64,000 nucleotides of DNA from positions 33,945 to 97,944 of the forward strand of contig JAJEDN010000118.1 in the NCBI GenBank assembly GCA_022821495.1. The letters run 5' to 3'. Every line of letters begins with the position of its first letter. Position 1 is the first letter of the stretch. Source of the DNA: Candidatus Poribacteria bacterium (GTDB lineage: Bacteria; Poribacteria; WGA-4E; WGA-3G). A model generated the notes under the pieces. That model saw nothing but the letters and a program-made list of their open reading frames with translations. It had not been told where the DNA came from and searched no databases. Shown here piece after piece: positions 16,276-24,775 of the stretch. The position numbers and the translations under genes are program-made.

Positions 16276-16304
16276 ATTATACACAAAAGAGGGATATGTG
16301 TCAA
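16276..16304 (-). promoter_or_regulatory. Consensus sigma70 promoter of the ABC transporter operon
   Basis: Minus strand TTGACA-N17-TATAAT with TG extension, about 40 nt upstream of ATG 16236. Confidence 0.8.
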
Positions 16305-16444
16305 TTTTTTTTGATAGTGATTGTCAGTAATGCGGAGGCGAGGTTTCAAATCCGGGCAGTGGTAGAAAGGATGATGGGACATTTAAATGATGAGGGGCGA
16401 GACACAAAACCTCGCCCCACACATTTACATTTATGAGATATGCA

Positions 16445-17164
16445 CTACAATTCCGTTTTAATGTGATTCCAAAATACAGTCAACTTTTCGCTCGCCGTGT
16501 CTTGCAGGTAATTCGCAACGTTTGTTTCACCCGTTTGTCCGTTGGCATCTACAGTATCCGTGTGCCACATCTTCGATGAATTTCGCGTTGGATTAAAGAA
16601 ATGATTACGCTCACCCTGAACAGCAATTATCGACTGCTGTGACATGCGATGCATCTCCGTTTCTGTTTCGGTATCTTTAATCACCGCCCACGGAGATGTA
16701 GAAATTTTGATGTTATGGAGCATTGTCTTTTTCATTGCCATCAAGCCGGATTCTGGTTCCGGTGGGTTCGTGAAAAATGCGAATTTCATGACAAAACCGG
16801 AAGCGGCGAGGAAAACGAGCAGTGCTGTGGCGTTGACAACCCTTGGAGAGAAATCCAACTTCAATCGTTCGAGACACCACGCCAATGGATTCGCAAAGAA
16901 TGCCAACTGCTGGCGTTGATGGAGTGCTCGGACGCGTTGCTGAATGTTCCCTACCAATTCCGGCGGTGCAGTCGGTTGGTCTGTACTTTCCAGGACACTT
17001 GCAGTGTGCCATAATGCTTCGTACTCGCGCTGACATTCTGGACAGGTTCGGAGATGCTCCAAAACCGCACGCCGCGACGTTCCTGCTGAAACGCGATGCG
17101 TTGTTTCTGTATTTTCTTCCATTACCAAGTGAGGCAAATTGTTAAGCGTTTGTTCGCAATTCAT
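16445..17164 (-). CDS. Zinc-binding (zf-HC2/ZAS) membrane anti-sigma factor
   Basis: N-terminal MNC...HLRTCPECQ (HxxxCxxC), one TM segment; lies downstream of an ECF sigma gene. Confidence 0.82.
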   Translation of the reverse strand: MNCEQTLNNLPHLVMEENTETTHRVSAGTSRRAVLEHLRTCPECQREYEALWHTASVLESTDQPTAPPELVGNIQQRVRALHQRQQLAFFANPLAWCLERLKLDFSPRVVNATALLVFLAASGFVMKFAFFTNPPEPESGLMAMKKTMLHNIKISTSPWAVIKDTETETEMHRMSQQSIIAVQGERNHFFNPTRNSSKMWHTDTVDANGQTGETNVANYLQDTASEKLTVFWNHIKTEL

Positions 17165-17168
17165 TTAA

Positions 17169-17583
17169 TCTTCGGGCAGGAGACCCCATGCTTTAGCTTG
17201 CGGAGGAATGCCCGCTCCTTTTTTTGTTGACAAATGTTCCTAAATCTGCTAAACTCCTAATAGGAAAGTTCGATCACACGAAGTCGTGTGTGAGGTTGTC
17301 CGCAGTCTACGGTGTTAGATACTTTGCGGCGCATAAAACTGAAAAAGTATTTACGCTTTCACCACCATAGACGACAGGAGAGTGCAGGAAAACCTGCACA
17401 TGATGTAATGAACTGCCACAGGTAAAAGCGTGGGTTCGCAAACGCACTCTCAAAAACAAATAGTCAACTTTCGGTTGAGAGGGCTGCTTGGGGCCCTCTG
17501 TGGAGATGGTGTAAGACGCTTCTTCGGAAACGCTACTGTCTACGAAGCACAAGCCCCTGCCTTTAGGCAGTGGGCACCTTGAC
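17169..17583 (+). mobile_element. Non-autonomous IS200/IS605-family derivative (tnpA/tnpB deleted) with omegaRNA-like right end
   Basis: Left hairpin CCCCATGCTTTAGCTTGCGG and right hairpin CCCCTGCCTTTAGGCAGTGGG, ending TTGAC. Preceded by TTTAA; no target duplication. Decayed KTCT*C Zn-finger remnant near 17389. The 3' segment CTGTGGAGATGGTGTAAGAC...CGAAGCACAAGCCCC resembles tnpB 3' ends. Confidence 0.75.
17227..17255 (+). promoter_or_regulatory. sigma70 promoter inside the IS605-derived element, antisense to the sigma operon
   Basis: TTGACA-N17-TAAACT with TG extension. Confidence 0.65.
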
Positions 17584-17595
17584 TGAGACACCTCC

Positions 17596-18153
17596 TTAGA
17601 GATAATATTTGCTCAACTTCCGCTTAAGATTCTTCAGCGCCTGATTCAAGCGCGAGGCGACTGTGCCTTCCGAACACACCAAGATCTCCGCAATTTCCCG
17701 ATACTTGAGGTGTTGCATGTAATATAGCGTGACCACCTCTCGTTGCTTTGGTGGTAACTGATCAATGGCATTTTGAACCATCTCACTCTGCTCAGCTTTA
17801 ATCATTACACGCTCGGGCGAGTCGTGCTCAGCGGGACGCCCTTGGATTTCCGCCTCTTTGGTGTAAGCGGTAAGCTTGCGCTCATTCGATTGCGATTTAC
17901 GAATGTATTGCTGGCATGTATTAATGCCGATACGATATAGCCATGTTCCGAATTGGGATTGAAATTGGAACGTTTTAACGGACTTATATGCCTCCAAAAA
18001 CGTTTCTTGTGTCGCATCAGCGGCATCTTCAGCGTTGCCGAGCATCCTGTATGCAAGCCCATAAATTTTTGAATGATGCCGATTGACGAGCTCGTTAAAT
18101 GCCTCGGCATCGCCCTCTACTGTCTGGTGTACGTACACATCATCAGGAATCAT
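17596..18153 (-). CDS. ECF RNA polymerase sigma factor
   Basis: GDAEAFNELV, DAADATQETF, FGTWLYRI, LPPKQREV, EIAEIL..SEGTVASRL. Confidence 0.95.
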   Translation of the reverse strand: MIPDDVYVHQTVEGDAEAFNELVNRHHSKIYGLAYRMLGNAEDAADATQETFLEAYKSVKTFQFQSQFGTWLYRIGINTCQQYIRKSQSNERKLTAYTKEAEIQGRPAEHDSPERVMIKAEQSEMVQNAIDQLPPKQREVVTLYYMQHLKYREIAEILVCSEGTVASRLNQALKNLKRKLSKYYL

Positions 18154-18273
18154 ATTTTTAATTTACCTTGCGGTTCGGTGAGATTGGTGTGTTATTTGTT
18201 TTGTTGCATCAGAATCAATTTTTCTTCATTTTTTTTATTAAGGGTAAAAAAAAGCAAATGCGTACTGATTTTT

Positions 18274-18747
18274 TCACGATTGATTCTGCGGCGACCGCCA
18301 CGCTTGACAATGTCCGGCAAAGCGTTTTAACGCCCCACTTTTAATGATAATTGCTTCTGGACGTAGGACTGTAGCGTAGGACGTAAGCAGCGCAATTGTG
18401 TCAAGCAGAGAGTTATAGCCTGATATGCCTGACATATCAATGTAAATTTTGCTGAACGGTTCGCCGAGATCCAGTGCTGCTTTAACATCAAAGCCGTCAA
18501 GCACCTCAAAATCGAGTTCGGGGTGCCTCTCTTTCGCCCGTTCAATACATTTGGGACTGATGTCCGTGCCAATAACTTTTTTGCAGTAAGGCGCAATCAG
18601 GGTTGTCGTTGTTCCCCATTCACAGCCGATTTCTAACACGACATCGTCGGCGTTTACCCAGACGGGAATCGTTTCTCGATATTCTTTTACGCCGCGGGTC
18701 GCGACGAAATCGGTATATCCTTCAAATAACTGATTTTGAATCGCCAT
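18274..18747 (-). CDS. Class I SAM-dependent methyltransferase
   Basis: VLEIGCEWG motif I and VIGTDIS motif II. Confidence 0.75.
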   Translation of the reverse strand: MAIQNQLFEGYTDFVATRGVKEYRETIPVWVNADDVVLEIGCEWGTTTTLIAPYCKKVIGTDISPKCIERAKERHPELDFEVLDGFDVKAALDLGEPFSKIYIDMSGISGYNSLLDTIALLTSYATVLRPEAIIIKSGALKRFAGHCQAWRSPQNQS

Positions 18748-24082: not shown

Positions 24083-24775
24083 TTGATGAACACTGAAAAC
24101 CAGAAAAAAATAGCTGCAGAAAAAGCGACAGAAAGTGTCCAATCCGGTATGATCGTAGGATTAGGGACAGGTTCCACCGTCTATTACGCACTCTTGAAAC
24201 TCGGCGCGATGGTATGTGAAGGACTTGATATTATCGGTATACCCACCTCCGAGGGTACCGAAAAGATTGCCTTAGAAGAAAAGATACCCCTGACAACGCT
24301 CGCCACACATCCGACCATTGACTTGACGATTGACGGTGCTGATGAGGTAGACGCACATCTCAATCTGATTAAAGGTGGCGGTGCTGCGCTCGTTAGAGAG
24401 AAGATTATCGCTAACGCATCGAAAGAGATACTGATTGTTGTTGATGAAAGCAAAGTATCACGCGTTCTCGGCACTAACTTTCCGCTCCCTGTGGAAATTG
24501 TGCGATTCGGATGGGAAGCGACCCAAACTGCTGTCAATCGGATTTGCGGAAAATCAACACTACGGCAGAACACTTCAGAAGACGATAATCCGTCCCCACT
24601 CATTACCGACAACGGCAACTATATCCTGGACTGCCACTTTGACGGCATCCCAGCCCCGGAAAAAGTTGAAACGCAGCTAAACAACATTCCCGGTGTGGTC
24701 GAGAACGGAATTTTCGTGAATCGGGCTGACAAAATCATCATCGGCACACCTTCGGGTATCCAGTATATGGAGTAG
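24083..24775 (+). CDS. rpiA: Ribose-5-phosphate isomerase A
   Basis: GLGTGST, DGADEVD, IKGGGAALVREK, TDNGN, PGVVENG. Confidence 0.97.
   Translation: MMNTENQKKIAAEKATESVQSGMIVGLGTGSTVYYALLKLGAMVCEGLDIIGIPTSEGTEKIALEEKIPLTTLATHPTIDLTIDGADEVDAHLNLIKGGGAALVREKIIANASKEILIVVDESKVSRVLGTNFPLPVEIVRFGWEATQTAVNRICGKSTLRQNTSEDDNPSPLITDNGNYILDCHFDGIPAPEKVETQLNNIPGVVENGIFVNRADKIIIGTPSGIQYME

Follow-up and report, generated by a model that had tools for sequence, protein, structure and literature searches.

An IS605-family element without a protein gene separates an anti-sigma gene from its Shine-Dalgarno sequence in a Poribacteria genome

Results

The sigma/anti-sigma locus and its interruption

In a 64,000-nucleotide (nt) stretch of a Candidatus Poribacteria genome (assembly GCA_022821495.1, contig JAJEDN010000118.1, positions 33,945 to 97,944; hereafter the window), a gene for an extracytoplasmic function (ECF)-type sigma factor and the adjacent, co-directional anti-sigma gene are separated by a 419-bp insertion that belongs to the IS200/IS605 family of transposons and carries no protein gene. 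The sigma gene (17596..18153, minus strand, stop codon TAA at 17598-17596) is an open reading frame (ORF) of 185 amino acids (aa) with Pfam matches to Sigma70_r2 (1.1e-19), Sigma70_r4_2 (8.4e-19) and Sigma70_ECF (1.6e-8), and its product consists of Sigma70 regions 2 and 4 only. The anti-sigma gene (16445..17164, minus strand) is intact and encodes 239 aa, beginning MNCEQ, with an H-x3-C-x2-C motif and one hydrophobic segment. Its match to zf-HC2 is weak (E 0.0022, 18.5 bits against a cut-off of 22.2), and the N-terminal zinc-binding HxxxCxxC motif is visible as HLRTCPEC. The gene starts at ATG 17164, and the in-frame TAA immediately before it rules out a longer ORF. No Rfam family was found at E ≤1 in 16300-18400.

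An initial annotation of this DNA, made from the letters alone, had pointed out that the sigma stop codon is followed by a strong ribosome-binding site (RBS) and that the anti-sigma ATG at 17164 lies more than 400 nt away from it. Indeed, the sigma TAA stands directly before GGAGGTG (17589..17595, minus strand), which is the native Shine-Dalgarno (SD) sequence of the anti-sigma gene, now orphaned 424 nt from the ATG; from the sigma stop to the ATG we count 431 nt. The adjacency of the two genes is kept in all 19 loci returned from relatives of the genus, and in each of the 19 the genes are 15-23 nt apart or overlap stop to start, with a GGAGG-like motif 5-10 nt before the anti-sigma start. Full-length anti-sigma orthologues beside a sigma gene are present in 23 of the 24 genus genomes searched; none was found in G020, a genome that is 84% complete.

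The closest relative, G021 (98.9% aa identity in the sigma factor and 95.8% in the anti-sigma protein), has an empty site at this junction (locus L037) that reads TAAGGAGGTGTCTCA|ATGAATTGC, which is flank plus flank. From this site it follows that the insert is 17165..17583 and that there is no target-site duplication, as the initial annotation had held; the limits carry a 1-nt A ambiguity. Of the limits first proposed (17169-17583), the right one is correct and the left one is 4 nt off. The coupled empty junction that was to be looked for in relatives exists, and its sequence is the one given above, not the predicted one ending in TCTCATTAAATG. The flanking motif also differs from the TTTAA first named: the conserved, transposon-adjacent target motif is TTCAT (17160..17164, plus strand), which complements the anti-sigma start ATGAA, its CAT lying opposite the start codon, and TTAA forms the first four bases of the element itself. 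Compared with the junctions of relatives, the arrangement of the locus shows that the anti-sigma gene has lost both its coupling to the sigma gene and its native SD.

Among the relatives examined, the insertion is present in this lineage only. Logan contigs from X4 and X5, two other sponge-metagenome runs from two other studies, join 17164 directly to 17584, skipping 419 nt; in their flanks there are 6-14 differences from the window per ∼290 nt, and these empty alleles therefore come from related strains. The filled allele is found in X1, which may be the source sample and whose contigs bridge both junctions (16700-17196 and 17540-18100) with 0 differences, and in X2, whose contigs bridge them with 5 differences in 16700-17311 and 3 in 17540-18100, with all 30 bins covered. 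At the level of contigs, the empty junction is found in diverged strains, and X1 and X2 show the filled form only. Most of the runs in which the stretch occurs carry the label of a sponge metagenome. In the window's own assembly (G000; 5.37 Mb, 133 contigs, 94.7% complete) the insert is repeated, with 41 matches, many of them at contig ends.

The insert is a non-autonomous member of the IS200/IS605 family

The insert, which lies antisense to the sigma/anti-sigma operon (17165..17583, plus strand), is a non-autonomous member of the IS200/IS605 family, and it is an element of a known kind, an IS605-family palindrome-associated transposable element (PATE) with an omega-RNA-like module. The derivation suggested at the outset is borne out by the end hairpins, the 5′ flank motif, the lack of a duplication and the TnpB carried by full-length copies. 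The paired C-rich..TTTAG..G-rich hairpins described in the initial annotation lie at 17184-17203 and 17554-17574, and terminal inverted repeats are absent. Flank alignment and local folds place the left end (LE) at 17165..17226 (plus strand), made up of 8 nt, a compound hairpin (17173-17214; outer stem CGGGCA/TGCCCG, inner part CCCCATGC-TTTAG-GCTTGCGG), CTCC (17215-18) and a run of T; the minus strand accordingly has AGGAG, the hairpin, AAGAUUAA and AUG in this order. In flank alignments of the family, TCAY (mostly TTCAT) abuts the LE and the right end (RE) stops at ...CCTTGAC, its terminus TTGAC being at 17579-17583 in the window. A census with an nhmmer profile of the LE gave 38 matches in G000, 36 of which have TCAY next to them.

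Copies of ∼1.4 kb with matching ends (on contigs C64, C67, C39 and C73) encode a 385-aa protein with Pfam matches to OrfB_IS605 (6.8e-24) and Cas12f1-like_TNB (4e-22), which aligns with the solved ISDra2 TnpB over residues 29-377 (E 2.4e-39). Aligned to the AI-designed nuclease 9yyg, it displays GIDFG, ATETLN and HDRDVNAA, which we take to be the RuvC D-E-D motifs. A tblastn comparison with TnpB found no TnpB-like coding remnant in the window copy. Further short copies lie on C115, C90, C109 and C36, and the other short copies all keep a promoter-like site just inside the LE and a conserved 3′ region of ∼180 nt.

The family also includes other forms. The copy in front of a PEPCK gene (G000 contig C121, ∼24219-24450) is smaller than the window copy, only ∼230 bp, with an LE, an RE and little between them. 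Elements with an LE of the TTCAT type also carry 341-aa RRXRR genes (IscB/IsrB-type, no HNH match; C45, locus L178 683-1708, plus strand, as well as C90, C15 and C106); these genes point towards the LE and are thus co-directional with the host gene that the LE abuts.

The 3′ region resembles an omega-RNA scaffold

The 3′ part of the insert (17407..17583, plus strand), which contains the RE hairpin and terminus, is 85-94% identical in the other mini copies, and its last ∼105 nt are common to the TnpB-bearing copies. For an analysis of covariation, the last 130 nt of the window copy (17454-17583) were aligned with 23 copies from G000 and from four of the five relatives searched. Compensatory changes occur in 5 of the 15 consensus pairs of this 24-sequence alignment, with the strongest at 56:96 (12/24; CG in 12 sequences, AU in 10 and UA in 2), followed by 57:95 (9) and 49:106 (6), and many G-U pairs exist on the plus strand only. 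This conserved, structured region fits an omega-RNA scaffold that would read out of the RE. By the mechanism of TnpB, the flank immediately 3′ of the RE (17584..17603, plus strand) would then be the guide-encoding part of the RNA, and TTCAT together with the flank from 17584 would equal the target of the guide, which is the empty site. In their passages on such elements, Meers et al. (PMC10055086) state that protein-less PATE-like IS605 elements ‘often encode omega RNAs’, which are used by the TnpB of other copies, that IS200/IS605 donor joints are scarless after excision, and that TnpB cuts the donor joint and so favours retention of the element. G000 carries intact TnpB copies, and if TnpB acts in trans with the predicted omega RNA, cleavage of the empty site, and with it retention of the element, is to be expected.

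Just inside the LE lies a promoter-like sequence, TTGACA-17-TAAACT with TG before the second hexamer (17227..17255, plus strand), which would read inward to the RE and then antisense into the sigma gene; it is a consensus match only, to 10 of 12 letters, and other mini copies carry an equivalent TTGACA..TATACT. In a consensus scan, the RE terminus TTGAC together with the flank also forms a promoter-like TTGACT-16-GATAAT (17579-17606, plus strand), aimed antisense into the sigma gene. The scan gave five promoter-like sites, compared with 1.6 ± 1.4 in shuffles. A simple terminator scan found no terminator-like site between the promoter-like sites and the sigma gene, and none inside the insert on the operon strand; we therefore do not argue for transcriptional polarity.

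Transposase genes of the family

A search for a tnpA with matching end hairpins had been suggested. In G000, IS605-type TnpA is represented by two fragments, on C95 (model positions 2-62) and C102 (55-120). The other three of the five PF01797 matches in G000 are of a 115-197-aa type and do not lie beside these ends, and this PF01797 search found no intact IS605-type TnpA in the 94.7% complete assembly. All of the 30 other genus genomes searched have PF01797 matches, and several relatives hold intact elements with a 139-aa TnpA and a TnpB, in which the RE is near-identical to that of the window copy and the inner LE hairpin (CCCCATGCTTTAGCTTGCGG) is identical to it.

Four contig ends of G000 (C2, C33, C80 and C81) carry an identical IS605 LE of a second type (first ∼125 nt), with the flank TTTAT and a promoter-like TTGACT..TATAAT, and break off ∼100 nt in, before any gene. 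LEs of this second type precede tnpA in relatives, and the interior of that element is therefore missing from the assembly.

Many left ends of the family lie at start codons

The position of the insert at a start codon looks like a habit of its family. In G000, 25 of the 36 LEs with TCAY stand directly against a start codon from which an opposite-strand ORF of at least 110 aa runs. As a crude null we took the share of ATGAA-type sites with non-coding sequence upstream at which an ORF of this length begins; this share is 28% for ATGAA (644/2304; binomial p 3e-7), 36.5% for ATGAAA and 43% for ATGAAAA (binomial p 1e-3). The captured starts have the form ATGAN or GTGAN on the opposite strand. Among the other 11 LEs, two touch frames of 101 and 268 aa; at the junctions of the remaining nine there is no long open frame. 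Similarly, 14 of 29 LEs in five relatives (among the 30 best loci) abut start codons. Examples of LEs that abut start codons are C121:24219, C5:99935, C74 and C69:9466 (loci L022, L010 and L027).

Of the six captured ORFs scanned, five have a Pfam domain that starts within residues 1-9 (PEPCK, NAD-epimerase, RimK, M81 peptidase and the Sigma70_ECF domain of an ECF sigma-WD40 protein), and the N-termini of these five are therefore true ones; for ribosomal protein L15, the sixth, the domain spans residues 79-146. The site of the PEPCK insertion is empty in all four relatives in which the gene was found. Since the anti-sigma and PEPCK insertions are both missing in relatives, both are recent and lineage-specific. 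Insertions of the same type at so many other start codons point to a habit of the element and not to a purpose-built ECF switch. Our literature searches turned up no description of such a start-codon habit or of an outward AGGAG-hairpin module; a whole family with a preference for start codons, where its members run antisense to the gene they capture, and a conserved, outward-facing SD-plus-hairpin in the LE both seem to be undescribed so far.

The left end carries a candidate ribosome-binding module

The statement that the anti-sigma gene has no RBS of its own is true of positions -4 to -18 before the ATG of the filled allele, where we found no SD. Further upstream, however, AGGAG (17219-17215, minus strand) immediately precedes the LE hairpin, and 8 nt separate the 3′ foot of that hairpin from the ATG. 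A motif search located CTCC (CTTCC in one copy) at a distance of 48-53 nt from the target in 34 of the 36 LE copies, across sub-families with different outer stems. Read on the strand of the host gene, these ends consist of AGGAG (GGAAG in one), 0-1 nt, the hairpin, 7-9 nt and AUG, with the spacings taken by eye from the sequences; an automatic parse of minimum-free-energy folds from GGAG to the stem, misled by additional outer pairs, recognised no more than 14 of 36. Local folds predict the LE hairpin and leave AGGAG unpaired. CTCC is absent at that place from eight TTTAT-type LEs examined, a comparison in which only two lineages are represented.

SD-led initiation is common in G000: GGAG, GAGG or AGGA reaches its highest frequency, 0.155, at position -11, compared with a background of ∼0.008, and 48% of 3,627 crude starts have an SD motif in -18 to -4. 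A second locus bears on the use of the LE as a leader. In G008, a relative, the only leader of rplO is a solo LE remnant of ∼70 nt between rpsE and rplO (L095, 1472-1563), and the native GGAG of rplO, found at 9-14 nt from the ATG in 29 of 30 genomes of the genus, has been lost by deletion. Translation of rplO in G008 must start from the LE leader. For the window, the module suggests that translation of the anti-sigma gene is probably altered and not abolished, and we infer that the level of the anti-sigma protein and its ratio to the sigma factor are changed. A substantial drop in anti-sigma with derepression of the sigma factor appears rather unlikely to us, although it should be kept in mind as a minority expectation.

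A repeated sequence upstream of the sigma gene

There are 93 copies of the 14-mer ACCGAACCGCAAGG in G000. The typical setting of this 14-mer is ...CACCTCACCGAACCGCAAGGAAAnTTAAAAAnATG directly before start codons, often ∼40 nt after CGGATATACGGA, and the region upstream of the sigma ATG, at ∼18150-18185 on the minus strand, contains the 3′ part of such a leader. The repeat looks like a shared leader or promoter cassette.

Discussion

A probably tolerated insertion

The explanation that we favour, with a probability of roughly 0.72, is that the insert is a tolerated selfish IS605-family insertion, with the anti-sigma protein probably still translated, and that it does not form a programmed excisable switch. 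The element inserted 3′ of TTCAT, exactly between the SD and the ATG of the anti-sigma gene, which would break the translational coupling to the sigma gene and take away the native SD. Initiation at the anti-sigma start would then either do without an SD or use the outward-facing AGGAG of the element, carried by the hairpin to a distance of ∼8 nt from the ATG. On the side of tolerance, the anti-sigma ORF is intact, and its dN/dS of 0.15 against G021 matches the 0.13-0.15 of more distant comparisons. Excision would need TnpA, which was not found intact in G000, and TnpB in trans with the predicted omega RNA of the element would probably cut TTCAT plus the flank and thereby favour retention.

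Several points weigh against this explanation. A fold of the whole 461-nt minus-strand RNA pairs AGGAG with an upstream segment, and on that model the LE-borne SD may be occluded in the window copy. The CTCC may have its role in the element itself rather than in translation of the host gene, and the start-codon null was built on crude ORF calls. Tolerance could also mean that the insertions have not yet been purged from a symbiont under weak selection. The dN/dS test has low power across a short branch. The X5 joint has 27 nt only on one side, at 90% likeness, and X1 and X2 have no empty joint in their contigs, a kind of data that cannot reveal rare variants. Finally, an intact TnpA may exist, and with it excision, because the assembly is 94.7% complete, many of its contigs end in IS ends and four LEs of the tnpA type are cut.

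The initial annotation had read the locus as an excisable switch for an ECF regulon, in which lowered translation of the anti-sigma gene derepresses the sigma factor and TnpA supplied in trans removes the element scarlessly and so reverses the effect. Precise loss of 17165-17583 would indeed restore the SD-5 nt-ATG junction seen in G021, the passages on excision in PMC10055086 describe scarless joints for IS200/IS605 elements, empty alleles occur in other metagenomes, and the intact tnpA+tnpB elements of relatives, which share the inner LE hairpin and an almost identical RE with the window copy, have an LE type that is also found at four contig ends of G000. However, the empty alleles belong to strains diverged by 6-14 letters per ∼290 nt, X1 and X2 show, at the level of contigs, the filled form only (a weak negative), and G000 yielded no intact IS605-type TnpA. 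An intact TnpB with a matching omega-RNA module is expected, from the passages on donor joints in PMC10055086, to cut the empty site and so to oppose loss. The same type of insertion at 24 other start codons (of ORFs of at least 110 aa) leaves no specificity for a regulon, and the LE-borne AGGAG may sustain translation. Taken together, these points make the switch quite improbable.

A somewhat less improbable alternative, which we nevertheless consider unlikely, is a fixed loss of repression, in which anti-sigma is strongly and irreversibly reduced and constitutive sigma activity is advantageous or neutral in the sponge host. The retention of the native SD and of coupling in 19 of 19 relatives implies that they are important, SD-led initiation is common in this genome, the insert is common to two slightly different strain variants (X1 and X2), and AGGAG is paired in the whole-insert fold; but the anti-sigma ORF is intact, with a dN/dS as elsewhere in the genus, and both the PEPCK insertion and the rplO leader of G008 indicate that genes downstream of these ends stay expressed. 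Antisense transcription, in which RNA from the inward plus-strand promoter and from the promoter formed by the RE and its flank runs over the 3′ end of the sigma gene, with less sigma and less read-through into anti-sigma as the outcome, would draw on the two promoter-like sites described above, on the excess of such sites over shuffles and on the lack of a terminator-like site before the sigma gene. These sites are consensus matches only, however, and omega RNAs are normally processed to short guides, and we hold this alternative to be improbable as well. Least probable by far, to the point that we give it almost no weight, is a repeat wrongly joined into the sigma/anti-sigma junction of a metagenome-assembled genome: contig breaks within the repeated element are numerous in this assembly, but the independently built contigs of X1 and X2 bridge both junctions, and those of X2 differ by single-nucleotide polymorphisms.

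Elements that may carry their own ribosome-binding site

Beyond the favoured explanation of a tolerated insertion, we put forward a more tentative idea, to which we give somewhat less than even odds, that the TTCAT-type IS605 elements of this genus act as ‘start-codon capturers’ with a portable RBS module, made up of AGGAG, the hairpin recognised by TnpA, 7-9 nt and the captured AUG. Since the target complements ATGAA, such elements would tend to land between the RBS and the start codon of a gene; the module would keep that gene translated, so that start codons would be the least harmful landing sites, and it could in time replace the native leader, as at rplO of G008. In the sigma/anti-sigma pair, initiation of anti-sigma would shift from coupling with the sigma gene to the site supplied by the element.

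If the LE really supplies initiation, it would be a mobile ribosome-binding site. A transposon with a target of just 5 nt could then spread through a gene-dense genome with little damage, and there would be a natural route to the re-wiring of translational coupling, as at this pair. The ratio of sigma to anti-sigma may differ between filled and empty strains, both kinds of which are found in sponge metagenomes.

Comparison with known systems

The transposon-adjacent motif (TAM) of ISDra2 is TTGAT, unlike the TTCAT found here. The 385-aa protein of the full-length copies matches the ISDra2 TnpB, which works with a right-end guide RNA (8h1j, 8bf8, 8exa), and the window copy differs in that it has no tnpB.

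Phase-variation switches made by insertion sequences are known, for example IS492 in Pseudoalteromonas eps. Like these, the present insertion is one whose precise removal could restore the original sequence. In contrast to them, neither both alleles in one clone nor a cognate transposase was found here, and homing by TnpB would oppose the switch.

The closest likeness in structure is to PATEs, including the omega-RNA-bearing PATE-like elements of Geobacillus stearothermophilus, which, in the sections of PMC10055086 that describe them, likewise have no protein gene, share LE and RE hairpins with TnpB copies and are presumed to be mobilised in trans. What is different here is the exact placement of the window copy, with an SD on one side and a start codon on the other, and the abutment of most family members to start codons, a pattern that does not appear in those sections. 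The same sections give TTCAT as the TAM of ISGst5 (IscB) and TTTAT as that of ISGst2 (TnpB2) in G. stearothermophilus. TTCAT is also the motif of the window-element family, including its IsrB-like RRXRR copies, and TTTAT that of the second LE type at the four contig ends. The elements described here come from another phylum, and those of the TTCAT type in the sponge symbiont carry TnpB, IsrB-like genes or nothing; their nuclease activity and their use of the TAM are predictions.

For the putative translation module, a precedent is the split RBS of phage T4 genes 38 and 25, where an SD far from the AUG is drawn close to it by a hairpin. Read on the strand of the host gene, the LE has the same geometry of AGGAG, a stable hairpin, 7-9 nt and AUG. 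What sets the present case apart is that the putative module is carried by a transposon end and would be delivered to the start codons that the element captures.

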